Below, one piece after another: positions 6,118 through 64,000 of a stretch of DNA of 64,000 nt. This stretch comes from Candidatus Margulisiibacteriota bacterium. Lineage in GTDB: Bacteria > Margulisbacteria > WOR-1 > O2-12-FULL-45-9 > XYB2-FULL-48-7. A program made the position numbers and the translations under genes. The DNA lies in assembly GCA_041661965.1 (NCBI GenBank), contig JBAZTH010000003.1:5107-69106 (forward strand), in the 5' to 3' direction. Position 1 is the first letter of the stretch, and each line of letters begins with the position of its first letter. The notes below the pieces were generated by a model, which was given only the letters and a program-made list of their open reading frames with translations, made no database searches and had not been told where the DNA came from.

Positions 6118-9100
6118 TTATTTGCTCCCCGGCGCCAGCCGATTCTCGACCGCCTCGGTCAACTGCGTTAGGGAATCGGTTCTGACTTTATCCAACAACT
6201 CTTTTAATCGCGCTTTAAGCGGACCGTTCCAGGGCAGGGTGGCGATAAAATCCGCCAGGCGGTCTTTGTCGAGCAGGAGATATTTTCTGGCTGATTCTTC
6301 AGCGCCTTCTTCATTTATTCCAGCGCTTCTAATCCTGTTGTTGCCCGGCGGGTCGGCGATCGGTTCCAGTTCGATCGGGATTAAACTATAATTTGGATCG
6401 AGATAGCCGACCGTAAAACCGGGGGTTAGGTCATGGAACCGAGGCCGGTCGACGCCCGGCGCTGTTTCTTGCGGTTCTTCAAAAAGTATCGGGCCGGGTT
6501 CTTGCAGGATGGCAGACAGACCCTGATCGAGAGTGAGTCCGGCCAGGTCGGCGAGCGCCGCCAGCTCGGCCGCCAGTCCCCGGGCTGTCTGCTGGGAGGT
6601 TGCGGTGTTGCGGCCGCTTTCCTTTAGCCGGTATTGAGTGATTGCTTCAAAATGAGCGACCGGTTTAGCGCCGGCCGGTTTGTCATCCGCCGCAGCCAGA
6701 AAGATTTCGTTGCGGTCAAAATATAAAAGATAGCGTTTCAGCAATTCAACAAAGGTCTTGGCGGCCAAACGCGGACCCTGCTTGTTGGGCGAGATCACGG
6801 GAAGCCATCGAATCTTGGCCAGCAACACCCGCTGCCGGTCAAAGTTTTCTTTTTCCCGTCCGGCCGGAACCGGCTTGAGCAGCGCCGGGATATCCTTGGT
6901 TATGACCTCTCGCCTGGCTTCTTCGAAGACCAGACGAGGGACATCTTTATCGTTAATCCCGGCCATGCGCGCCAGCGTGGCGATATCCCGCGCGGCATCG
7001 CTGCCCGCTTCGGCCTGTAGCCGCAAGATCTCGTCGTTAAGCATCAGCTTTTGGTCATCAGGGACGAACGAAAGATTTTGCAGGCGCGCCAGCGCGTCTT
7101 CCTTTAACAACACGACATCGTAATTGAGCGGCTCGGCCAGGCCCAATCCAACCAGCATTCTTTTTGCGTAGGCCGGGGCGGTCTCGGCCACCACCCGCCG
7201 GTAATGATCGTACCCAACGATGATATTGGCGGCCAGGAATTTGAACTCTCCGCTGTCCAGAGAGGTTAAATCTGTTTCGGAGTAGCCGGCCCGCCGCCTT
7301 GTGTTTTCATAACCTGCTTTAACGTTCAGAAGCATTCTGATTTTATTAAGCAGCGTTTTTTTGTCCGCTTGTTTGGGGGAGAGGGCGAAAATTCCTGCTT
7401 TCAGCTCGTCTACCGATAACTTAAATTTATCGCGCACTTCGGTATCGCTGGGCGGCGAATTGGCCACGGACAAGCTAAACTCATCGACTCCGGCATGAAA
7501 ATAGCTGTCAAGATCGTCTTCTATATTATCGGCTAACGGCCGGCCCTGATAGGTGTTGGCCGGATTGGCGTAGATCCGGAAAAAATGACGGACAAAATCC
7601 TCCAGCTTGTAGCCTTCCACCAGACCGTCTTCGTATTCACGAAAGAGCTGGAAGGCCCGGCCGCGGTCCAGAGGATTGGTATAACAGGTCGTGGCGGCAA
7701 AGCGAATATGCCATTTGTCGATCAAATGGTTGCCCCGGTTACGCTCATCCGCTGACAGCGCGTTGGCGCCGTAGACCACGCAGCCGATTTGGTGCAGGCG
7801 TTGCGCGGCCGCCTGCTCTTCTGCATCATTTTTGAATGGGCGGGCCAGCAGGATCCTGGCTTCGGCCAAATATTTATCGGTGACAGCCCTTAATCGCGCA
7901 TAGTCCGGCCGATTGTTCTCCGCAGCTTTATCAATCGGCGCAGGGGCGGGTGGAACGGCTTTTGTTCCGGGCGGGATTTCAGCCGGAACGCTCAATTTAT
8001 CCTGCCTGCTCAAGGTAACCCGGCCGCCGCCTTCATAGAAAGTGTTCCGCGAGCCGCCGCCGCCCCGGTTGGGAGCGGGAGCGCCGCTGCTTTCAACGAC
8101 TATCGCGACATTATCGGTCTGTTTGATGGTGCTTCTATAAACCGTGAGCTTTTCTTCCCTTAATTTCGCCAGCTCCTGAGAGTCTTCGATGGCTATTCCG
8201 GCGACCAGGACCATCGGGTCGAGCAGGTCGGCCCGCAACTCCGAAACCGGCTGCCAGCCGGCATAATTGCCCAGCAAAACCGCCTGGCGGTTCTCGTTAT
8301 AAATCGCCAGGTCGTCGTGATCAGAATATCTGGCCACCACCAGCCGGTTGTCTTCACCGAGCATTTCAGGATAAAAGAGCAGAATGCCGAGCGCCCCGAT
8401 GCCCCGGAGCGTGCACTCCTGGCCGCCCGGGCCGACCAGCTTCGGCCGGCCGTTAACTTTTAATTCTCCGCTGATAATTGAGGTCAGATATTTGGCGTTC
8501 GGGTCATACTTTGATTTCGATTCGATCAGGCCGATCAGTTTTCGCTTTTTTTCTTCGAGGTTCATACTTTGGTCGTGCGCCGCCGGTTCATACTCTTTGA
8601 CCCAGCCGGCGATTTCCGCCTGTAAAATCGGAAGCGGGATGCTCGGATTCGGCATCAGATAAACGGTGTCCCGCGACCGCTGATCCCAGAAATCGGCTGC
8701 AAATAAAAACGCGAGGAGTTTGGGATCAACCCGGTTGCCTGGTTTGCCCAGATCGGCCAGGTATTGGTCAAGCCAGGTTTTGCCCTCCTGCCGCAGGCCG
8801 GCAAGTTTTTGTTGAGCGGCCTTTCGCTCGGCGGGAGAGAGCGGGTTGGGTTTGCCTGCGGGTTTGACCGACATCTCTTCCCAGGGAGAAGTTTCCGAGC
8901 TCGCGTTGGGACTGACTGTAAAGCCGGCGTTAACATCGAAACGTGGTTCGGCGGAAAAAACGGCGTTTTGGCTCGCGGAACGGGCACCGCCCGACGCTTT
9001 ATTTATTTTTTCGACCAGGCGATCGATTTCTTCCTTGCCCGGCGGTGAATTATCGGCTGTTTCAGCTGCCGGGTTAACCAGCAGTGGTTTCCCGGCTTTT

Positions 9101-54643: not shown

Positions 54644-55123
54644 TTACCGGTGTTTTAAATAATTGATCAGCCCGCCCTTGTCGACGATCTTTTGCATGAA
54701 CTCGGGGAAGGCTTGTGCTTTATAGGTTTTACCGCTGGTTTTGTCTTTTATCGTCCCGCTGGATAGTTCAACTTCGAGCTTGTCCCCTTCATTTATTTCT
54801 TCCGCCGCCTGGGGTGATTCCAGAATGGGGAGGCCGATATTGATGGCGTTCCGGTAAAAGATCCGGGCGAACGACTTGGCGATCACCGCCGAGATCCCAG
54901 CCGCCTTGAGGGCGATGGGGGCGTGTTCGCGCGACGAGCCGCAACCGAAGTTATCCCCGGCGACGATAAAGTCGCCCGGGTTCATTTTGTCGACCCATTC
55001 CGAGTCGGCGTCCATCATGGCGTACTGGGCGAGCTCGGCCGGGTCGGAGGTATTGAGGTACCTGGCCGGGATGATCAGGTCGGTATCGATATTATTACCG
55101 AATTTCCACGCTTTACCTTGCAT
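54644..55123 (-). CDS. leuD: 3-isopropylmalate dehydratase small subunit (short archaeal-type LeuD)
   Basis: 159 aa; [17 protein letters not shown] and [14 protein letters not shown] motifs. Confidence 0.8.
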
Positions 55124-55250
55124 AACATCACTATTTTAGCACCCTTAAAGCGGGACTTCAATAAATCCCCTGAAATTTTCTCCTCCAAATATCGATAATT
55201 TTTTAGAGAGCGGCAGCTCCGCGCTTAAAAAAATTTATAAAGGCGGGAAC

Positions 55251-56186
55251 ATGATAATTAAAACGGGATTGCGGAACGCCGGTTCTTTCCCCGCGCGGAC
55301 TGCCGGTTATGAAATATTTCCGAGCCGCAACGGCCGGATCGCGGCTTGCCAGCCTTACAAATATCCCACCAGAGACAACGACCTTGCGGTCGGCGAACAG
55401 GTCTTTCAGGCCGATAACCGGCAAGAGTATCTTTCGGTCCGCCTCACCATGTCCCATCTTTTCTCGGCCATGGGGGCCGACAGCCGCGGCCAGGCGGTTG
55501 AAAACAAGGCGGTCATTACTTCTCCCGGACTGGTCCCGGCGGAGATCGAACGATCTTTCAGCCTGGCCGGACCGGAATTCGCCGCCGATTTTGCCGGCCT
55601 CGCCAATATCGTTTTTTGCCCGCTGGTTTTAGAGGTTGACGATCGCGGGGTCCGCTGGTCGCCGGGTTTTGAATTGGGGATGTTTTATCACGAACCGGTG
55701 CTTCAAAGATCTTTTTTAAGCCAAGCGAAGTATCTTGACGATCCGGCCAGGATCGTCTTTGTCAGCGCTTTTTCCGCGGAAAAACTCCCGATCCCGGGAG
55801 AAGAACTTCACTGGAGCTTAAGTTTTCTGGTCGGTCGGGTCAAGATCAATGCTTTGGCGGTTGCCAAAGGCTTATCGGATTTCGGGGAGAGCGCCCGGGA
55901 TTGCTACGCCCAGATCTATCAGATCAGACTGACCCAGAACTTGCTGGAACAGACTTTGGCCGCTGACCCAAGTTTCAATTCTAATAGTAAATTCATGATT
56001 ATCCTGAAGTACTTGATCGGTTTCGACCAAATGGTCGGCAAAGCGGCCAACCTGATGACCCCGGCTGAAAAACAGCGCTTGGCGGGCTTGTTCGGCGGGG
56101 AGAGCGTCGATACCACACGACGTTATAACCAGGCTTTTGTGGAAGCGATGCTGGGGACCGTAGACAAAGAGCCGACTGCGAGTTAA
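55251..56186 (+). CDS. Hypothetical 311-aa protein, upstream partner of a Ser/Thr kinase; paralogue of 59109-59954
   Basis: Shares LAG.EFA.DF ... PGEELHWSLS(F/W)(L/F)(V/I)GR(V/L) segments with the 281-aa ORF. Confidence 0.45.
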   Translation: MIIKTGLRNAGSFPARTAGYEIFPSRNGRIAACQPYKYPTRDNDLAVGEQVFQADNRQEYLSVRLTMSHLFSAMGADSRGQAVENKAVITSPGLVPAEIERSFSLAGPEFAADFAGLANIVFCPLVLEVDDRGVRWSPGFELGMFYHEPVLQRSFLSQAKYLDDPARIVFVSAFSAEKLPIPGEELHWSLSFLVGRVKINALAVAKGLSDFGESARDCYAQIYQIRLTQNLLEQTLAADPSFNSNSKFMIILKYLIGFDQMVGKAANLMTPAEKQRLAGLFGGESVDTTRRYNQAFVEAMLGTVDKEPTAS

Positions 56187-56251
56187 AAAACCGCTTATAA
56201 AACTGCAATTTTTGTCAATTTGTTACGATAATATAATAGAGGGAGTACCCT

Positions 56252-57265
56252 ATGAGTACAATCAGAAAAATACCTTCGTTCAGTGATCTTAAACCGAGCC
56301 GGAAAATCAGCCGTCCGGCGCCTTCGCGGCTGAAGCAACCGGCGGACAACAATCCCGGCCGCCTCTCGTTGCCCAAGGTTGATTTTACTCATACCGTTGA
56401 CCAAGATCATATCGCCAATTTAATGTCCGCTACCCATAATTGCCTGATGAATACCACGGGGCCGATTGAGTTCGGCCCTTTTCTATTGAGAAGCAGACTT
56501 GGCGCCGGAGGGTATGGCGTAACTTTTAAAGCGATCGACATGCGAGACGGCAAAGAAAGCGTCGTCAAGGTCCCTTTAAGATTTGAAGAGGATAATTTTA
56601 GGGCGCTGATAGAAGAGGGGCAAAAAGCATTGGTCAGCGGCAGTCTTGACGGGCAGGTCGTTACGGTCAAAGGAATAGGGGATGTTAACGGCGTCCCGTA
56701 TATTGCCATGGAATATATCGATGGGTTCGACCTCTCCGCTCTTCTTGAGCTGAACGGCGATTTTTTGCCGCTTAAACGGAGCCTTGAGATCGTCATCGGC
56801 CTTTGCGACGCGGTTGAACACTGTCACTCGCTCGGGGTTTTTCATCGGGACATCAAACCGTCGAACATCATGATCGGCAATGACGGCAGAGTCGTGCTGA
56901 TCGATCCCGGATTATCCGCTGTTGGGAACGACGCGACCGGTTTTGCCGGCACGCCGCTCTATTTTTCACCGGAGCAGTCGAGAGGGGAACAATTAACGCC
57001 GAGATCGGAGATCTTTACGGTCGGCGTGATCCTGTTCGAAATTCTGACCGGCGAACACCCGTTCGGGGCCTACACTCATTCGGCGCTGATGCAAAACATT
57101 CAATCCAATGAACCGGACTTCAGCCTCCTGCCGCAAAAGACCAGGGAACAAAAGCAGCTTTTCTACGTGATCAGGCGGGCGCTGGCCAAAGACCCGAAAC
57201 GCCGGCCGGCTTCGGCCGCCGAACTGCGCAGTCAGCTCGCAATTATCCTCGCCAAACTGCCGTAA
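56252..57265 (+). CDS. Hanks-type Ser/Thr protein kinase (337 aa)
   Basis: GAGGYGVTFKA (Gly-rich loop); VVKV (Lys); VFHRDIKPSNIMI; DPG(L)S; GTPLYFSPEQ. Confidence 0.8.
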   Translation: MSTIRKIPSFSDLKPSRKISRPAPSRLKQPADNNPGRLSLPKVDFTHTVDQDHIANLMSATHNCLMNTTGPIEFGPFLLRSRLGAGGYGVTFKAIDMRDGKESVVKVPLRFEEDNFRALIEEGQKALVSGSLDGQVVTVKGIGDVNGVPYIAMEYIDGFDLSALLELNGDFLPLKRSLEIVIGLCDAVEHCHSLGVFHRDIKPSNIMIGNDGRVVLIDPGLSAVGNDATGFAGTPLYFSPEQSRGEQLTPRSEIFTVGVILFEILTGEHPFGAYTHSALMQNIQSNEPDFSLLPQKTREQKQLFYVIRRALAKDPKRRPASAAELRSQLAIILAKLP

Positions 57266-57354
57266 TTATACGCCGCTTCTAAGCCAGCAAAATATCCTGA
57301 AATTTCCCGGCGGGCTAAAAGATAACTAATCAGCCGCAGTAAAAGGAGATTTTT

Positions 57355-57615
57355 ATGGTATATAAAGTCGGGTCCCGTCAATTAAGGCCGCAGTCGACCG
57401 CGCTGAAAGTCGGCGACGAGATGATTGGGAGCCTTATTTTTAGGGAGAGAAGGAATGTCGGTTTCGGAGAAGCAAGGGAACTTTTGCTGGTCAGGGTCAG
57501 AGACGGTATCATGGGACTCTTGGTCGGTAACCGGGCCGAATTGGACGCGCTGGACCCGAACCTTACGATGCCGCCGACTCTTTGCATCCAAAAAGACGCT
57601 ACGTTTTTGAATTGA
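57355..57615 (+). CDS. Hypothetical 86-aa protein with a strong RBS (AAAGGAG)
   Basis: ORF plus canonical Shine-Dalgarno 8 nt upstream. Confidence 0.35.
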   Translation: MVYKVGSRQLRPQSTALKVGDEMIGSLIFRERRNVGFGEARELLLVRVRDGIMGLLVGNRAELDALDPNLTMPPTLCIQKDATFLN

Positions 57616-57635
57616 TCAATCAATGGCGGCCAAAC

Positions 57636-58010
57636 ATGCCGGCCGCCGCCCCGACCAAGCCCGAAACCACTCCTTCCCGCATCACCGACAAAGCGATCCC
57701 GGCGGTAACAGAGCGGACCGCTTTCCGCAATTTCGGCTACGGCCTGTCAAAGACCAGTTCGAGGGATAAAGGCCAGTTAAGGAGCCTTTCTATGGACTGG
57801 ATTGCCATGGCCAATGATGGCATTGGAACCTATCGCCGGAGCCTGCGGGATGGAGAAATTATCGACCTGGAGGCGTATCAACATTATAAGGGTCTTTATG
57901 AGCTCGTCCAAAAATTGGAGATAAAAAATAAGGGTTGGTCTTCCTTCAGGGATAAATTCTTCCAGTTTTTAAGCCTCCCGGCGGAACCGACGCGGCCGGA
58001 ACGATCATAA
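57636..58010 (+). CDS. Hypothetical about 124-aa protein (start uncertain; ORF track extends to 57582)
   Basis: ORF only. Confidence 0.25.
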   Translation: MPAAAPTKPETTPSRITDKAIPAVTERTAFRNFGYGLSKTSSRDKGQLRSLSMDWIAMANDGIGTYRRSLRDGEIIDLEAYQHYKGLYELVQKLEIKNKGWSSFRDKFFQFLSLPAEPTRPERS

Positions 58011-58072
58011 TCTCGGTTTAGCCATGCAATTTTACTCGTTTTCTTTCGATAATATAGTAGGAGTAAAGTGCC

Positions 58073-59065
58073 ATGAGTACTATACCTAACATTGGTTCCT
58101 CAAGCAGGCTTTCATCGAGATGGGTGGTTTCTTGCCCACCCTCAATTCCGGCGTCGCGTTCTTCCGGGCTTAGCCCGTTAGCGCAGAGCCTCCCAACCCT
58201 TAATTTTCATGCTTTACCGTCGATCAAAGACCAACCGATCGCCTTAAACATCCAAGGAACGCAAGTTACTTTGAGCGACAGCAATAAAATTGGCCAGGGT
58301 GGAATGGCGGCGGTTTACAAGGTTTTTGCCGATGGACGGGAGCTGGCGGCGAAATATACGAGTATCCCCAAATTGGCGGCTTTTTTACGGAAGGAAGGGG
58401 TGTTTGGTTCCCAGCTTAATTCCGCGCCTGGTTTCCATCAGGTCTACGGAGTGGCCGATGCTGGAGGAGGGGCGGTCCTTTTAATGGATTTTATTCCAGG
58501 CGAAAAAGCCTCAAGGTTGGCGGGGATTCTTCCCCAAGCAACAGTAATCAGGTGCATCAGAGACATCAGCTTGCGACTGTATGAAGCGCATTTGCAGGGG
58601 ATAATTCACCGGGACATTAAAACCGAGAATATCATGATTGAGATAGAAAACGGCCGGCACGTCAAATCAAGTTTATTTGATTTCGGCCTGGCCACGACCG
58701 TTGACGAACAGCGGCGTCAGTCCGGTCTTATGGTTGGAACGCCGGCGTTTTTTTCTCCGGAACAAGCCCGCGGTCAAGCCCTTGATCCGCGGTCGGACCT
58801 TTACTCTCTTGGGGTCGTGTTTTATGAAATGCTGACCGGGCGCAATCCAATCGATCCGAGAAATGACATGCCGGCTTATGACCTGATAAACAGTGTCGCC
58901 CTTGGAACGGTCGCCCCCGACCTCACCAAATTGCCCGTCGAACTTCGCCCAATAATCGGTAAAATGTTGGAGCGTAATCGCGAAACCCGCTATCAGGATT
59001 GCCTGGCTGTTTTTCTGGACCTGGCAACCGTCCTGGAAAACATGGGGCTCGACCCGAATTCTTAA
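58073..59065 (+). CDS. Hanks-type Ser/Thr protein kinase (330 aa)
   Basis: GQGGMAAVYKV; AAKY (Lys); IIHRDIKTENIMI; DFGLA; GTPAFFSPEQ. Confidence 0.8.
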   Translation: MSTIPNIGSSSRLSSRWVVSCPPSIPASRSSGLSPLAQSLPTLNFHALPSIKDQPIALNIQGTQVTLSDSNKIGQGGMAAVYKVFADGRELAAKYTSIPKLAAFLRKEGVFGSQLNSAPGFHQVYGVADAGGGAVLLMDFIPGEKASRLAGILPQATVIRCIRDISLRLYEAHLQGIIHRDIKTENIMIEIENGRHVKSSLFDFGLATTVDEQRRQSGLMVGTPAFFSPEQARGQALDPRSDLYSLGVVFYEMLTGRNPIDPRNDMPAYDLINSVALGTVAPDLTKLPVELRPIIGKMLERNRETRYQDCLAVFLDLATVLENMGLDPNS

Positions 59066-59108
59066 ACCGAGTGAAATTTCCCGCTCCTACCCACGATAAC
59101 TAACCGTA

Positions 59109-59954
59109 ATGCTAAAGGTTATTTTCCAACCACAACGGGCCGGGTTTTTACCGGCGGACTTTGCCGGCCGCCGGCTCTCGCCGGCCAAGAACGGCCGGGT
59201 TGAATTAGCCCAATTGGGGCGGCCGCTCCCTGTCGCGCAAGATGACGTGAAGGCCCGTCCGCCGATGATTGGTATTTATGGGCTGGTGGCAAAAATAGCG
59301 GTCGCGGTCGTTGTCGACGTCAATCATTTGCCGGAGGCGATTAAAGCGCCGTATCTTTTGGCCGGAGAGGAATTTGCCAGGGATTTTGAACAGTATCTTT
59401 CCGCCGTCGTCTTTTTTGATTCGATCAAAGGACGGAACGGCGAATGGAACAATGGTTTTGAGCTCTCCATGCTGGGGTTAGATGGGCAGTCCTTTAGCCA
59501 TTTAACGGCGGATGCCACGTCGGAGATTTCCCGGTCCGATGGTCGAGGGGTTGTTTTTTTGAGCTCTACCGCGCCCGAAGGGAACTTGATCCCGGGCGAA
59601 GAACTCCACTGGAGCCTTAGTTGGTTTATTGGGCGGCTTCGTGTCGGGAACTTACCGCTAGGGGAGACGGGCCGCGATTGCGCCGCGGCTATTTATCAAT
59701 CGAAAATGCTGCGGCATTTTATTTCCGGCAAAATGCGGACCGATCAGGGCTTTTATTATGACCCCTTGCTAAGGCAATATTTAAACTGCTTGGTCGGCTT
59801 TAACGAGCTTATTATCAGTAAAGCCAGCTTGCTGACGGAGCCGGAAAAAAACACGATCGCCGCTCATCATGAGAGGGGCTGGTCGATCGACAGCGTGATC
59901 AAGTTTAACCGAATAACCGTTGAGGGCTATCTGACTGCTCTGCAGGAGACGTAA
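59109..59954 (+). CDS. Hypothetical 281-aa protein, downstream partner of a Ser/Thr kinase; paralogue of 55251-56186
   Basis: See the paralogue. Confidence 0.45.
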   Translation: MLKVIFQPQRAGFLPADFAGRRLSPAKNGRVELAQLGRPLPVAQDDVKARPPMIGIYGLVAKIAVAVVVDVNHLPEAIKAPYLLAGEEFARDFEQYLSAVVFFDSIKGRNGEWNNGFELSMLGLDGQSFSHLTADATSEISRSDGRGVVFLSSTAPEGNLIPGEELHWSLSWFIGRLRVGNLPLGETGRDCAAAIYQSKMLRHFISGKMRTDQGFYYDPLLRQYLNCLVGFNELIISKASLLTEPEKNTIAAHHERGWSIDSVIKFNRITVEGYLTALQET

Positions 59955-60559
59955 TGAAGATCAATAAAGTTCGCGCGTTAATGCCGCTGGTCCTGGCCGG
60001 TGCGCTGGCCGGTTGTCAGACAAAAAATACGGCTATTCATAAAGACCCGACCGCGCCGGTTGCTCCGGCCAAAAAGACGGTCTGGCCGCCAAACTATGAA
60101 TATTTTATCGCTCATACTATTGCCGTTAAAAATATCAACCTTAAGAATTACGGCTGTGTCGGCGTTGGCGATAGCTTTGACCGGGACTTCAACGGGACTG
60201 AAGCGAGCGCGGTGGAAAATGTCCGCCAGGCGATGTTTTCGGCCCACCGGAGTTATTTCTCCAGCTGTCGGCTGGCAACGGCCGGCGATAAGCAGCCAAC
60301 AATAGCGAAGTCGATCGATCCGAAGGAGCCGAACTCGCCGCTTTATATGACGATCGCCGGGTCGGATGGGGTTGTCGACAGTTACATCCTGATTTATCGG
60401 CAAGATAAACTATTCCACGCCACCGCTATTGCCGCTGACGGGATCGCCATGGTTAAGGCGGGGGGAAAGCTGAATACTTTTGTCGGGACGATGACCGCTG
60501 AAGGCTGTACGCCGACGATCCCCGATCTTAGTTTGTTGCTGATTTTGAGAGGCAAATAG
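59954..60559 (+). CDS. Predicted lipoprotein (201 aa)
   Basis: Signal with lipobox LAGALAGC. Confidence 0.5.
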   Translation: MKINKVRALMPLVLAGALAGCQTKNTAIHKDPTAPVAPAKKTVWPPNYEYFIAHTIAVKNINLKNYGCVGVGDSFDRDFNGTEASAVENVRQAMFSAHRSYFSSCRLATAGDKQPTIAKSIDPKEPNSPLYMTIAGSDGVVDSYILIYRQDKLFHATAIAADGIAMVKAGGKLNTFVGTMTAEGCTPTIPDLSLLLILRGK

Positions 60560-61021
60560 ATGGGGATTACGCGAGTTTATCATCGCGTCATGGGGGCGCT
60601 TGGTTCGGAAAGTTCACAAGCCAAACTACTGAAGTCCGGCCAACTTCCTAACCGGACGATCCTCCGTTTGGCGTTTACTTCAAGTAACAACCTTAGGCTG
60701 GCCGCCTGGGCGGCGATCAACGCCCGGCCGGAAATTATCTGCGGCGGGGCGCAAAGGGACGAGTTTGGGGTAAAGCGCCTGTTACCGGACGCGGAACTGG
60801 TCTTAAGACAACGGGAAACGGAACCGAAAACGGTTGCCCGGGTTTTGCATTATTTATGTTCCGACGAAGCCAGGGAACTGACCTATGTAATCGATCTGTT
60901 AAGTGAGCACAGCGCAAACAAGCAAGGGGACATTGTCTCCGAACTTGGCAAGATCAACCTTCCTTTGGCGAAAAGAATAGTCGCGATTTGGCAAAGAAGC
61001 CGCGGAAATAAACCAGAGTAA
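60560..61021 (+). CDS. Hypothetical 153-aa protein
   Basis: ORF contiguous with the lipoprotein gene (TAGATG junction). Confidence 0.35.
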   Translation: MGITRVYHRVMGALGSESSQAKLLKSGQLPNRTILRLAFTSSNNLRLAAWAAINARPEIICGGAQRDEFGVKRLLPDAELVLRQRETEPKTVARVLHYLCSDEARELTYVIDLLSEHSANKQGDIVSELGKINLPLAKRIVAIWQRSRGNKPE

Positions 61022-61131
61022 TCCACTTCTTCTGACGATCTGCCCACCTATAGGCCGACTTCTACCTTGTTCTCACGGCACCCTTCATTACCCCAAAACA
61101 TTGACTCTCAAAGAGGGGCACTGCACATGAT

Positions 61132-61170
61132 AAACGGAAACCAGCGGCAATATCGCCGCGGTTTCCGTTT
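61132..61170. repeat. Palindromic element AAACGGAAACC-AGCGGCAATATCGCCGC-GGTTTCCGTTT, copy 1; copy 2 at 63102-63133
   Basis: Core CGGAAACC(A/T)GCGGCAATATCGCCGCGGTTTCC is identical in both copies except for 1 nt; the copies bracket the AT-rich islet. Confidence 0.75.
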
Positions 61171-61242
61171 CCCGACTAAATATGTTTTTTCAGCAGTCTT
61201 AGATTGACTCTATGAGGCGAGAATGGGAGAATAGGCCGCTTT

Positions 61243-61956
61243 ATGAATATGTTAATTTCAAAATCCTCAGATCTTGCCCCTTATATTGACCACACCCTTT
61301 TGAGAAAAGAGGCTACTGAAAATGATATTGAAAAGCTTTGCCTCGAAGCTAAGCAATACGATTTTTATTCGGTTTGTATAAGATTTCAATGGGTTAGAAA
61401 AGCTAAAGAATTGTTGAAAGGAACACAAGTAAAAGTGTGTTCAGTTGTAGGGTTTCCGCTTGATTCTGTTCAAGCTGAAAATTGCCATTTTGGTGCTATG
61501 TCTACTAAAGAAAAAGTGGGTGAAGCCCAAATGGCGATTGCTGATGGGGCGAACGAATTGGATATGGTTATTAATATTGATGCCTTAAAGAAAGGCGATT
61601 ATGAATATATAAAAAACGATATCAACTCGGTTAAAAAGGCTGCGGGTAATAAAACATTAAAGGTTATCATTGAAACGGCTATGCTTAATGAGGAGCAAAA
61701 GAAACAAGCGTGTCAATTAGCACAAGAGGCTGGGGCCGATTATGTTAAAACCTCAACAGGATACGTTAAAGATCAAACAGGCAAGACGCTTGGCGCAACG
61801 ATTGAAGATGTGAAATTGATGAGAGAGATTGTTGGAGGTGATTTTGGGGTTAAGGCTTCCGGTGGAATTAGTGATTATAAAAAAGCAAAAGCCATGATAG
61901 AAGCTGGTGCAAATAGGCTGGGGTGTTCGGCATCGGTTGAGATAGTGAAAGAATGA
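61243..61956 (+). CDS. deoC: Deoxyribose-phosphate aldolase
   Basis: DHTLL..., VCSVVGFP, and VKTSTGY (Schiff-base Lys) motifs; AT-rich codon usage unlike the flanking genome. Confidence 0.75.
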
Positions 61957-62588
61957 ATTGTTTTAAATTAGGGAGGAATGAGATGGATAATAAAGAGTAC
62001 GAATTAAAATTTAAATATGCATGGAACTGGTTTAAGTATCATGCTGTTCAGCGCTATTCATCATTTTATTATTATTTGATAATTATCGGTGCATTGGCTT
62101 ATGGATATATTCAAGGTAATTGTGCGCCAAGAATAAAGCTGATTATTTCTCTATTCGGGGTAATTGTTTCGTTGGCTTTTATTTTTATTGAGAAGCGTAA
62201 CGCTGATTTGGTCGATTGTGGCAGATTAGCGTTAGATGCCTTGGAAAAGGATAAAAAATGTGTTCTTAGCACCTCATATATTAGGTGCAGAGATAGGAAA
62301 AGTAGTTGCGGAGGTAAAAAGGGCAATGTGGAATGGATCAGAACACATACATTTTGGTTTAGGGCGATTATATGCACTGTTTTTACTATATCACTGTTTG
62401 CAATGGTTGATATTATTGTTAATAACTGGGGCAAAATAATGTCTAATATTGTTAATCCGTTAAATTGGATAATACTAATAGTTACATTGGTTGGTTTTAT
62501 TGTTTTTGTAATAATTGCTTGCTCTTCCCTTAAAAGGGTTGTTAATATTAAGATTCCGGATGATTGTTGGAATGGGGACTGCAAATGA
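61953..62588 (+). CDS. Hypothetical membrane protein (211 aa; AT-rich islet)
   Basis: Several hydrophobic helices; overlaps the deoC stop. Confidence 0.4.
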
Positions 62589-62622
62589 AGTTGGGGTATT
62601 CAAACTATATGGTTTTCTCATG

Positions 62623-62958
62623 TTAACCTTATCAGCAAGAATCCTTGCCATTCTCTACATCGCCTTTATCAGCCTTTTCGCCTTAGATGCCTTTAACGGT
62701 GGTTTTAGCTGGCCGGGGACGGTGATCGCGTTATTCATCCACCTTATCCCAACTTTTATCCTGATCTCTTGCCTTGCCGTCGCCTGGAAAAGGGGAGTGA
62801 TCGGCGGGAGCCTTTTTCTGGCAGTGGGAATATTCTTTACTCTCTGGTTTAGGACCTATCAGCGGCTAGATGTCTTCCTCTTAATTAGTTTCCCGTTGCT
62901 GTTGATCGGCGCGCTGTTTATAATAAGTGGGAGACCGACTAGAGGTCTTCGGGACTAA
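62623..62958 (+). CDS. Small membrane protein (about 111 aa; 3-4 TM helices)
   Basis: ORF track frame 62515-62958 with the likely start at M 62623; hydrophobic throughout. Confidence 0.35.
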   Translation, partial: LTLSARILAILYIAFISLFALDAFNGGFSWPGTVIALFIHLIPTFILISCLAVAWKRGVIGGSLFLAVGIFFTLWFRTYQRLDVFLLISFPLLLIGALFIISGRPTRGLRD

Positions 62959-62985
62959 CTATTCGACCGGCGACCGCCGAAGCGG
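62939..62985 (-). pseudogene. 47-nt duplicated fragment of the leuC 3' end (encodes [15 protein letters not shown]) lying 310 bp from the real leuC terminus
   Basis: The reverse complement reads gcc gct tcg gcg gtc gcc ggt cga ata gtt agt ccc gaa gac ctc tag. This is nearly identical to 63297-63343, which is the true end of leuC. Confidence 0.65.
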
Positions 62986-63101
62986 CCGTTAAGTAATAAA
63001 CCCAATTCTTTTTTTCGGCTTTTCTTCAACTTGAAGGGTTCTTTCTCTATGGAGCATGGAGTTATGGTGGCTGAGGAGGGGAAGCGGCAATTGCTAGACT
63101 C

Positions 63102-63133
63102 GGAAACCTGCGGCAATATCGCCGCGGTTTCCT
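63102..63133. repeat. Palindromic element copy 2 (CGGAAACCTGCGGCAATATCGCCGCGGTTTCC)
   Basis: See copy 1. Confidence 0.75.
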
Positions 63134-63203
63134 TGTTATTGAGGGCAAAGAAACTTGGAACCGCGACGTTCAGTCGCAGGTTCCACTAGAAAGATTAAAG
63201 ATA

Positions 63204-63224
63204 CCCCACCGCAAGCGGTGGGGA
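63204..63224 (-). terminator. Probable intrinsic terminator of leuC (CCCCACCGCTTGCGGTGGGG followed by a T-rich tract on the minus strand)
   Basis: Hairpin plus downstream TATCTTTAATCTTTCT on the minus strand. Confidence 0.5.
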
Positions 63225-63294
63225 GTTAGGTCAGAATGTTGACCTCTTTTATTCTTGTTGTCCTTTAAGGTCACAATTTGTGACCTTAAAAGTT

Positions 63295-64000
63295 TTAGAG
63301 GTCTTCTGGGCTAACTATCCGACCGGCAACCGCTGAAGCGGCGGCGACGGCGACGTTGGAGAGGTAGACTTCCGATTTGGGATGGCCCATCCGGCCGACA
63401 AAGTTGCGGTTGGTCGTGGCGATCGCTCTTTCCCCTTCAGCCAAAATCCCCATGTGGCCGCCAAGACACGGCCCGCAGGTCGGGGTCGAGACGGCCGCTT
63501 CCGCTTTCAGGAAAATATCGAACAACCCTTCTTTCATCGCCTGTTCGTAGATCTTTTGAGTTGCCGGGATAATGATCAGGCGGACATCTTTGTGTTTCTT
63601 TTTCCCTTTAAGGACCTTGGCCGCGATCCGGAGATCTTCGATCCGGCCGTTAGTGCAGGAGCCGATGACCGACTGGTCGATCTTTACCGACTTGCATTGG
63701 CTGACCGGTTTGGTGTTGCTGGGGAGATGAGGGAAGGAGACCTGCGGTTCGATCTTGGAAACGTCCCAATCGTAAACCTGGACGTATTCGGCGTCCGGGT
63801 CGGAAGTATAAATAGTGCCTTTTCCCGCTTTGACCTTCTTTAGGTAGGCGACGGTCTTGGCGTCGGCCGGGAAGATCCCGTTCTTGCCGCCCGCTTCGAT
63901 CGCCATATTGGCCATCGTCATCCGTCCCTCGACCGAGAGGGCGTCGATCGCCGGGCCGGTAAATTCCATCGACATGTAACGAGCGCCGTCGACCCCGATC
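63295..64000 (-). CDS. leuC: 3-isopropylmalate dehydratase large subunit, C-terminal part; gene continues beyond the window end (N-terminus missing)
   Basis: Aconitase-family Fe-S ligand motifs (...GSCTNGR..., ...TPTCGPCLG...); the reading frame stays open to the window edge. Confidence 0.8.

Follow-up and report, generated by a model that had tools for sequence, protein, structure and literature searches.

Do the AT-rich genes beside leuC in a Candidatus Margulisiibacteriota bacterium, and the repeats that surround them, form one inserted element? The locus in question lies near the end of a 64,000-nt stretch of contig JBAZTH010000003.1 (the window), which belongs to a 264-kb metagenome contig in ENA, assembled with megahit. 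Here deoC (encoding deoxyribose-phosphate aldolase, DERA) and genes for two membrane proteins lie between two copies of a palindrome, P1 and P2, and a second copy of the leuC 3' end is found close to the genuine one. A sequence-only reading took this arrangement for an insertion at the leuC 3' end that had duplicated its target, or for recombination between palindromes resembling repetitive extragenic palindromic (REP) sequences. Our analysis indicates that the AT-rich islet, the palindromes and the leuC-end copy are probably three separate things: a swappable cassette, REP hairpins and the scar of a recombination.

The LeuC protein of the window shares 97-98% amino acid identity with LeuC proteins of candidate division WOR-1 and Candidatus Margulisbacteria/Saganbacteria in the protein database, and a scan of GTDB with LeuC gave a best match of only 73% identity. 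The loci of relatives to which the window is compared (L083-L088 and L171-L176) were gathered from the protein database and by contig look-ups.

The leuC-end copy carries much of the argument. It is real and has the same orientation as the gene, but its bounds are 62939-62986 on the minus strand, i.e. 48 nt and not the 47 nt up to 62985 that had been read. It starts exactly at the stop codon, comprises 15 codons plus TAG and matches the true tail (63295-63342) at 42 of 48 positions, stop codon included, with 308 nt between the two. The true tail belongs to a functional leuC (PF00330), of which the 3' part occupies 63295-64000 on the minus strand and runs off the window; the full 419-aa gene is found in L001. 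Both tails encode an identical 15-residue peptide, and all six differences are silent third-position changes, peptide and stop being kept (TAG versus TAA). Under random substitution such a silent-only outcome has a probability of 3.6e-4 for six changes and of 0.023 for three. When the changes are polarised on the relatives at least three are derived in the copy, several of its variant bases are states found in the functional leuC of other lineages, and the closest tail is that of L176 (43/47). Because all differences lie in silent third positions, the copy (allele sequence GCCGCTTCGGCGGTCGCCGGTCGAATAGTTAGTCCCGAAGACCTCTAG) reads as a relic of a second functional leuC allele that would have evolved under coding selection in another lineage, and not as a duplicated target. 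Its position also speaks against target duplication, as the gene for a small DUF7670 membrane protein separates it from the edge of the AT-rich DNA.

If the leuC end and the DNA downstream of it had been duplicated in tandem in situ and had then diverged, possibly with later allelic replacement of the functional copy, the tandem orientation of the two tails and their distance of only 356 nt would be explained. Such an origin is unlikely, since at least three derived changes, all silent (P about 0.02), would have to have arisen in a non-functional copy, and since the tails are 12.5% diverged whereas P1 and P2 are 97% identical. Moreover, we know of no mechanism that gives a 48-nt duplication around 308 nt of new DNA.

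The non-coding 308-nt spacer (62987-63294) consists mostly of repeat-family hairpins and has no counterpart in any relative (blastn); its first 114 nt (62987-63100) matched nothing anywhere, and a tblastx search for coding remnants returned hairpin-family matches only. Besides P2 and an inverted palindrome described below, it contains an intrinsic-terminator-like hairpin of a repeated family (CCCCACCGCTTGCGGTGGGG, 63204-63223, minus strand), which lies downstream of leuC, has a T-rich tail and, with its stem CCCCAC..GTGGGG, serves that gene, and a perfect palindrome (AAGGTCACAATTTGTGACCTT, 63264-63290) 5 nt after the leuC stop. This last element (GGTCACAATTTGTGACC) directly follows leuC in L171 and L172 and occurs elsewhere in the WOR-1 genome as well.

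Islands and integrative and conjugative elements (ICEs) can integrate in the 3' ends of genes with reconstitution of the ORF, for instance ICESt1 and ICESt3 at fda and the islands in tRNA genes. The leuC end resembles these cases in having a direct repeat of a gene 3' end and a functional ORF that is kept. A small integrative element consisting of the spacer and one tail, with the 48-nt repeats as attL and attR, would account for repeats that start exactly at the stop codon, for the reconstituted ORF and for differences that are silent only. Several findings make such an element improbable. No recombinase domain was found between leuD and leuC, and the nearest gene of the Phage_integrase family is a conserved Xer-like one, about 8 kb upstream of leuC in the relatives whose DNA reaches that far. 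Unlike in the known 3'-end islands and ICEs, only 308 nt of hairpin-rich DNA is present, made of hairpins of host repeat families, and the repeats are 87.5% identical, with six differences spread over the 48 nt and no identical core longer than 11 nt. In addition, the leuC stop boundary has been hit repeatedly by insertions: L176 (537 nt with a 156-aa gene) and L088 (a 183-aa gene) carry unrelated ones at the same boundary without repeats. In L176 (2707-3249) the 537-nt segment lies exactly between the overlapping stops of a Bact_hydrolase gene and leuC (CTAG ... TTAG), both stops being kept. The motif CGACTAG just before the relic corresponds to the last codons of this Bact_hydrolase gene; in L083 and L087 the overlap between the hydrolase gene and the leuC stop amounts to 4 nt. 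The motif is only suggestive of a relic lineage in which hydrolase and leuC overlapped and most of the hydrolase gene was later lost.

As had been noted, the relic is fused in antisense orientation to the end of the small membrane-protein ORF: the DUF7670 ORF (62620-62958, plus strand; PF24709, E = 2.5e-23; start fixed by NCBI call P0511) ends in antisense leuC-tail sequence, which makes up its last six codons and its stop. The resulting C-terminal end, RPTRGLRD, was found in no other DUF7670 homologue examined. The remainder of the gene (62636-62932) is 82-87% identical to L083, L087, L088 and L176; DUF7670 is ancestral to the locus. In another locus, L169, deoC and its partner gene are followed by 56 nt from the 5' end of a DUF7670 gene (7458-7513), 86% identical to the DUF7670 gene of the window, and the intact DUF7670 gene 1.1 kb further on (8646-8981) is only 69% identical to that of the window. 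The fragment is another displaced gene-end relic and suggests a cassette that travels with flanking DUF7670 sequence.

The drop in GC content reported for about 61240-62960 is real but was drawn too wide, as only deoC and the next ORF are AT-rich, to about 62600. The GC content and the GC content at third codon positions (GC3) are 0.384 and 0.315 for deoC (61243-61956, plus strand) and 0.333 and 0.307 for the following membrane-protein ORF (61983-62588, plus strand); the values for DUF7670 (0.48 and 0.575) are similar to those of its neighbours (0.52-0.53), and leuB, leuC and leuD have a GC3 of 0.72.

The two AT-rich genes occupy a slot of which the content differs between relatives. Its left border is a 153-aa gene (60560-61021, plus strand) without a match in Pfam or PADLOC, which is 81-84% identical at the nucleotide level to L083, L087 and L088 and 90.6% to L176, and its right border is DUF7670. 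According to a blastn map, 58025-61014 is homologous to L087 and L088, homology to L083 extends to about 61118-61120, and 61119-62635 has no counterpart in any of the three. The slot was observed in the following states. In L087 and L088 it is empty, the flanking genes (a 154-aa gene and DUF7670) being about 30-50 nt apart, so that the earlier suggestion of an insertion holds for the AT-rich genes when these sisters are the reference. In L083 (12073-13570) it holds genes for a DUF4145 protein and a 267-aa protein (GC 0.35 and 0.31), the former resembling the single-gene defence system PD-T7-4 (PADLOC, E = 2.5e-9); the 267-aa protein of this locus, which belongs to the WOR-1 RIFOXYA12 genome, shows a weak match to DUF3800. 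In the window it holds deoC and its partner, and in L176 the same pair, 85% identical to that of the window at the nucleotide level, with a different left junction and no REP. Conserved adjacency of leuC and deoC had been named as evidence against an insertion; among the seven lineages examined the two were adjacent in the window and L176 only.

The left junction shows the same kind of doubling as the leuC end. Reading from the 153-aa gene, we found a truncated copy of the slot promoter (61101-61120, plus strand; the -35 box TTGACT and half of the spacer, recognized from the L083 alignment), then P1 with its 3' spacer, then the intact promoter ATTGACTCT-N12-TGGGAGAATA (61203-61233, plus strand; promoter scan, -35 TTGACT and extended -10 TGnGAGAAT), which ends 9 nt before the ATG of deoC. 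Beyond 61118-61120, L083 goes on with ...agTGGGAGAATA and a different cassette, which is preceded by the same promoter ATTGACTCT-N12-TGGGAGAATA. The promoter module, (cccc)aaaaCATTGACWC..AAAGA.GGGG.GTGGGAGAATA, recurs before unrelated genes, with sites at 61101-61120 and 61203-61233 in the window, at 13608-13638 in L083 and at 2130-2160 and 5853-5883 in L169. In the window, L165 and L169 the -10 box lies just 6-9 nt from the deoC ATG, and this spacing suggests leaderless or near-leaderless transcripts.

The two palindromes are near-identical, as had been observed, matching at 31 of 32 positions in the same orientation. P1, the A-bulge variant, lies at 61135-61166 (plus strand), where it had been placed, and P2, the T-bulge variant, at 63101-63132 (plus strand), one base off the earlier 63102-63133. 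A third copy, P3 (1684-1715, minus strand), directly follows the stop codon of a gene and has a compensated inner stem (GCGAC/GTCGC instead of GCGGC/GCCGC). An inverted variant, Q (GGAACCGCGACGTTCAGTCGCAGGTTCC, 63157-63184, plus strand), forms with P2, across a 24-nt spacer, a doublet like those known as REP doublets forming hairpins (REPINs). The 3' spacer of P1 (61167-61190) is typical of a REPIN subfamily, of which the inverted partner is missing here; REPINs in L103 and L126 match this part of the window at 98% identity over 61132-61178 and at 94% over 61127-61180, respectively. All three REP sites of the window are intergenic, and by chance no copies would be expected. The elements span 31-33 nt and have two stems, an outer one of 7-8 bp and an inner one of 5 bp, with a bulge of 1 nt and a loop of 6 nt; they fold as DNA hairpins at -12 to -18 kcal/mol (P1 and P2 at -13 to -18; z = -5.6 to -7.2). 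A scan of Rfam gave only two sub-threshold chance matches.

The resemblance to REPs proved to be more than superficial: the palindromes are members of a genuine REP family, and a Y1 transposase is associated with it. A degenerate 31-mer (GGAAACCNGCGNCANTATCGNCGCGGTTTCC) was found in 85 copies on 76 JGI metagenome stretches, of which at least nine come from the 1.67-Mb WOR-1 RIFOXYA12 genome, and a single 183-kb contig holds at least nine copies. The palindrome is thus spread genome-wide, a distribution that the sequence-only reading itself had put forward as telling against an insertion. Over 88 copies (the 85 from metagenomes and the three of the window) the two free stem positions pair in every copy, as G..C in 31 and as A..T in 57, and a mismatch never occurs. 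A looser scan added compensated changes in the inner stem (GAGAC/GTCTC, GCGAA/TTCGC) and in the outer stem (GGAAGCC/GGCTTCC, GGAACC/GGTTCC). In 40 of the 88 copies (about 45%) an inverted unit follows within 60 nt downstream, which is the doublet layout of REPINs and of bacterial interspersed mosaic elements (BIMEs). A crude six-frame stop-free test of extragenic location placed 47 of the 88 copies inside some open frame and is uninformative; some copies overlap the 3' ends of ORFs.

The transposase is encoded by 154-aa Y1_Tnp ORFs (PF01797, E = 6e-20 and 3e-20, respectively) in L110 (3607-4071) and L149 (2217-2681), of which L149 belongs to the 1.67-Mb genome. In both, the gene lies between ligA and an rRNA-methyltransferase/pheS pair and between inverted REP copies, one in plus orientation upstream and one in minus orientation overlapping its 3' end. 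Homologues abut REP copies in L091, L092, L138 and L161, and L110 holds a second homologue with 46% identity. The protein scores 68.6 bits against the IS200 model NF033573, above the cut-off of 55. The whole locus (L110 2761-4986, L149 1650-2673) has three direct REPs with a spacing of 139-140 nt between ligA and pheS, each repeat unit also carrying the hairpin GGGACAGGGCTTGTCCCTGTCC; the units are followed by a 160-aa gene, the transposase gene and two inverted REPs, which overlap the 3' ends of the transposase and rRNA-methyltransferase genes (peptide GNRDDIVAGFQ). A second palindromic repeat family, AACCGCGCAATTAATTGCGCGGTT, was noticed at 1653-1676 of the window and in L095, L098, L106, L126, L130, L150 and L155; its eight copies among the collected loci often lie beside a REP copy, and one has a compensated centre (CACTTAAGTG).

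In PMC3116915, PMC3337134 and PMC3333891, REPs and their REP-associated tyrosine transposases (RAYTs) are defined by traits that this family shows, apart from the GTAG/CGTC tag. The points of likeness to the REP/REPIN-RAYT systems and BIMEs of Enterobacteria and Pseudomonas described there are a 31-33-nt imperfect palindrome in many dispersed copies per genome, which often form inverted doublets around short spacers and cluster with further hairpins, structure-preserving variation, and a Y1 (HUH) transposase gene between housekeeping genes and flanked by inverted copies. Unlike those systems, the family resides in a candidate phylum (Margulisbacteria/Saganbacteria), shows no conserved terminal tetranucleotide GTAG or CGTC, has a transposase that fits the IS200 model better than the RAYT equivalog and occurs at low density in the window (3 sites per 64 kb). 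Two REP super-families are marked by a GTAG or a CGTC terminal tetranucleotide (PMC3733652); neither was conserved in the flanks of the 88 copies, and the element starts with (C)GGAAACC. A literature search that included the name Saganbacteria found no paper on a REP/Y1-transposase system in this group.

Two other identities of the palindrome were considered. An integron attC or Xer/dif-like site, as the 6-nt asymmetric centre might suggest, was dropped because inverted copies flank the Y1 transposase genes. A role as terminator only (P2 and P3 lie after genes and are followed by TTG(T/C)TAT) would leave the copy number, the doublets and the link with the transposase unexplained; termination or stabilization of mRNA is possible as a side effect.

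The claim that the palindromes bracket one inserted unit can now be assessed. The 1,966-bp segment from P1 to P2 (outer flanks cactgcacatgataaa and ttgttattgaggg) could have been inserted or mobilized as a whole, either by Campbell-type recombination between REPs or in the manner of IS200/IS605 elements with the RAYT acting in trans. P1 and P2 are in direct orientation and nearly identical, both lie in DNA that is absent from the sister loci, and the layout is like that of IS200/IS605 ends, which are directly oriented hairpins recognized by Y1 transposases (PMC3333891). Even so, this origin is quite unlikely. The segment includes DUF7670, for which relatives lacking REPs at this locus have a syntenic gene of 82-87% identity, L176 has deoC and its partner in the same slot without any REP, a second copy of the segment was found nowhere, and a further illegitimate join would have to be assumed to account for the truncated leuC relic. 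The near-identity of P1 and P2 says nothing about a shared event, because both cores are common variants of the family (8 further exact copies of the P1 core and 20 of the P2 core). No REP-type hairpin was found within about 10 kb of leuC in L083, L087, L088, L171 or L176, and the copies near leuC are strain-specific arrivals for that reason.

The preferred reading, in which cassette, REPs and relic are separate things, would involve DNA of two sister lineages joined at two non-homologous junctions, 61120/61121 and 62986/62987. At each of these a truncated and an intact, diverged copy lie side by side, of the slot promoter at the first and of the leuC 3' end at the second. Most likely, DNA of a sister lineage was imported by recombination with at least one illegitimate end, perhaps as a single fragment (61121-62986) from an L176-like donor or perhaps in two steps, with homology anchoring one side of each. 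The leuC tail of one lineage would have survived as the 48-nt relic, which now also serves as the terminus of DUF7670. Separately, a single-copy Y1 transposase would spread the non-autonomous REPs through intergenic DNA, and REPs may have colonised the non-coding DNA of the locus before or after the recombination; they would mark the locus and delimit no mobile unit. The mechanism, the order of events and the roles of donor and recipient are what we infer from the end product.

Homology-facilitated illegitimate recombination is known from Acinetobacter, Streptococcus pneumoniae and Pseudomonas stutzeri. One side of the incoming DNA is anchored by homology and the other is joined at a non-homologous point, which can leave a truncated end of a resident gene. 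The import proposed for the locus resembles this process, with a truncated gene end beside an intact copy; here it is read from its end product alone.

Several observations weigh against this reading of the locus or against one of its parts. None of the sampled genomes has either parental arrangement, i.e. a leuC that ends in the exact tail of the relic and is overlapped by DUF7670 or the hydrolase, or leuC followed by the 308-nt spacer. Identity to the relatives is fairly even over the locus (82-93%), so that donor and recipient segments are indistinguishable. Both REP sites fall in the two strain-specific non-coding segments, and the REPs may have had a causal part in the rearrangements. For the REP system, the transposase scores 57.9 bits against the RAYT equivalog NF047646, below the cut-off of 80, and no RAYT gene was found in the window or in L001. 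For the cassette, the 201-aa membrane protein encoded next to deoC has itself no Pfam match at E <= 0.01, its family assignment being made by transitive homology.

A chimera in which the metagenome assembly joined two strains would explain the diverged copies without any recombination. The contig stems from a megahit assembly, assemblers break at REPs, and a Logan contig from another sample (L002, corresponding to 61142-62797) begins inside P1; de Bruijn assemblies are probably interrupted at sites of this kind, where REP sequence recurs. A chimera is nevertheless highly unlikely, since exact matches between the two tails do not exceed 11 nt and no k-mer could thus have joined them. Furthermore, the Logan contig is 100% identical over 61142-62797, and the proteins of a 544-kb assembly made independently (NCBI MFA6170320-22 / JGI) include an identical DUF7670, with the junction-spanning C-terminus SGRPTRGLRD, and the identical product of a 46-aa ORF that runs through P2 and Q; this assembly was compared by protein cluster membership and not as DNA, and 61120/61121 and 62986/62987 themselves lie outside all this evidence. 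As far as checked, the structure is not an assembly artefact.

The cassette pairs an ordinary enzyme with a membrane protein. The deoC product scores 254.6 bits against TIGR00126 (cut-off 117.3), matches PF01791 and has the DERA lysine motifs DYVKTSTG and VKASGG in its translation, from which DERA activity is predicted. Its partner, a 201-aa multi-pass protein with about four hydrophobic segments, was assigned to the 8xMP family (PF24838): an exhaustive profile-free search gave 800 related representatives, of which several reach the PF24838 threshold, the L165 homologue and P0361 scoring 21 and 23.8 bits and remoter phmmer relatives 30-38 (cut-off 30). The partner adjoins deoC in every context found (L165-168, L169-170 and L176). 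In addition, in at least three proteins (P0387, P0496 and P0501) one polypeptide carries DeoC at its N-terminus and 8xMP at its C-terminus; the DeoC domain of P0387 matches solved DERA structures at E = 2e-67. P0389 and P0392 look alike, with a DeoC domain by Pfam and a C-terminal part that matches the membrane protein of the window. Conserved adjacency and fusion couple DERA to the membrane protein. The 8xMP domain is also found C-terminal to other, unannotated N-terminal domains (P0397, P0446, P0495 and P0440).

In other hosts, too, deoC and the 8xMP gene are poorer in GC than their flanks (0.42 and 0.33 versus 0.53 in L165, 0.40 and 0.34 versus 0.50 in L169, and likewise AT-rich in L176), and their neighbours vary, for instance NUDIX and Fic in L165 and ORF6N and others in L169. 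Because of this low GC content of its own in every host and the different genomic contexts, the pair behaves as horizontally exchanged cargo in a promoter-equipped slot. The slot resembles integration hotspots (of the defence-island type or with capsule/O-antigen-type cassettes) in having the same flanks and promoter around alternative foreign gene sets or none, and the hotspots of defence in particular through its PD-T7-4-like alternative. Unlike such hotspots, it lies inside the DNA that separates leuC from leuD and no integrase or att site was found, and unlike in defence hotspots the cargo of the window is a metabolic-type enzyme with a membrane protein and without a match to a defence model.

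It is tempting to see in the slot a defence-type hotspot and in DERA and 8xMP a mobile two-component system instead of housekeeping nucleoside catabolism, for example a deoxyribose-phosphate enzyme with an oligomeric membrane effector against phages or competitors, but both the general idea and this example are doubtful. In favour are the conserved pair and its fusions, the foreign composition in each host, the accessory-gene contexts (Fic, ORF6N) and the slot shared with the PD-T7-4-like gene. Against it count the ordinary, equivalog-level DERA and the lack of matches: no PADLOC model matched deoC, 8xMP or DUF7670 of the window, and the 8xMP protein of the window had no match in a PDB sequence search or in tblastn against phages and plasmids. 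A membrane-tethered metabolic role for DERA and 8xMP is just as possible.

The surroundings of the slot are unusual in themselves. The genes leuC and leuD (54644-55123, minus strand), which are normally adjacent, are kept apart in the window by an 8.2-kb run of oppositely oriented genes (55124-63294, plus strand), a variable accessory block with Ser/Thr kinase genes, genes for unknown proteins, the cassette slot and DUF7670. Such a wedge was found in every close relative fetched, with different content: 4-7 kb with other genes in L083-L088, and a kinase gene and a 313-aa gene directly after leuC in L171-173, where leuD lies beyond the reach of the fetched DNA. In the more distant L174 it is a single 128-aa gene. 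The antisense block ranges from one 128-aa gene up to 4-8 kb with one to three Ser/Thr kinase genes and many family-less genes, and differs in content even among genomes with LeuC proteins that are 97-98% identical. The splitting of leuCD by this block and the repeated pairing and fusion of DERA with 8xMP are the most unusual by-products of our analysis.

Every part of the locus has known counterparts: the repeats are a REP/RAYT family, here in a new lineage, the slot with its allelic cassettes lies in a variable block, and the leuC-end copy is a recombination relic. Together they mean, first, that a REP/Y1-transposase repeat system is at work in Saganbacteria/Margulisbacteria, where REPs break short-read assemblies of such metagenome-assembled genomes and can pass for the borders of islands. 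Secondly, silent-only differences in a displaced gene end provide a clean criterion to tell a recombination relic from a target duplication. Thirdly, the locus is a compact example of accessory-gene exchange in an uncultivated lineage, with a promoter-equipped slot and alternative AT-rich two-gene cargoes, and the recurrent pairing and fusion of DERA with 8xMP offers a small, testable lead on a membrane protein family without an assigned function.

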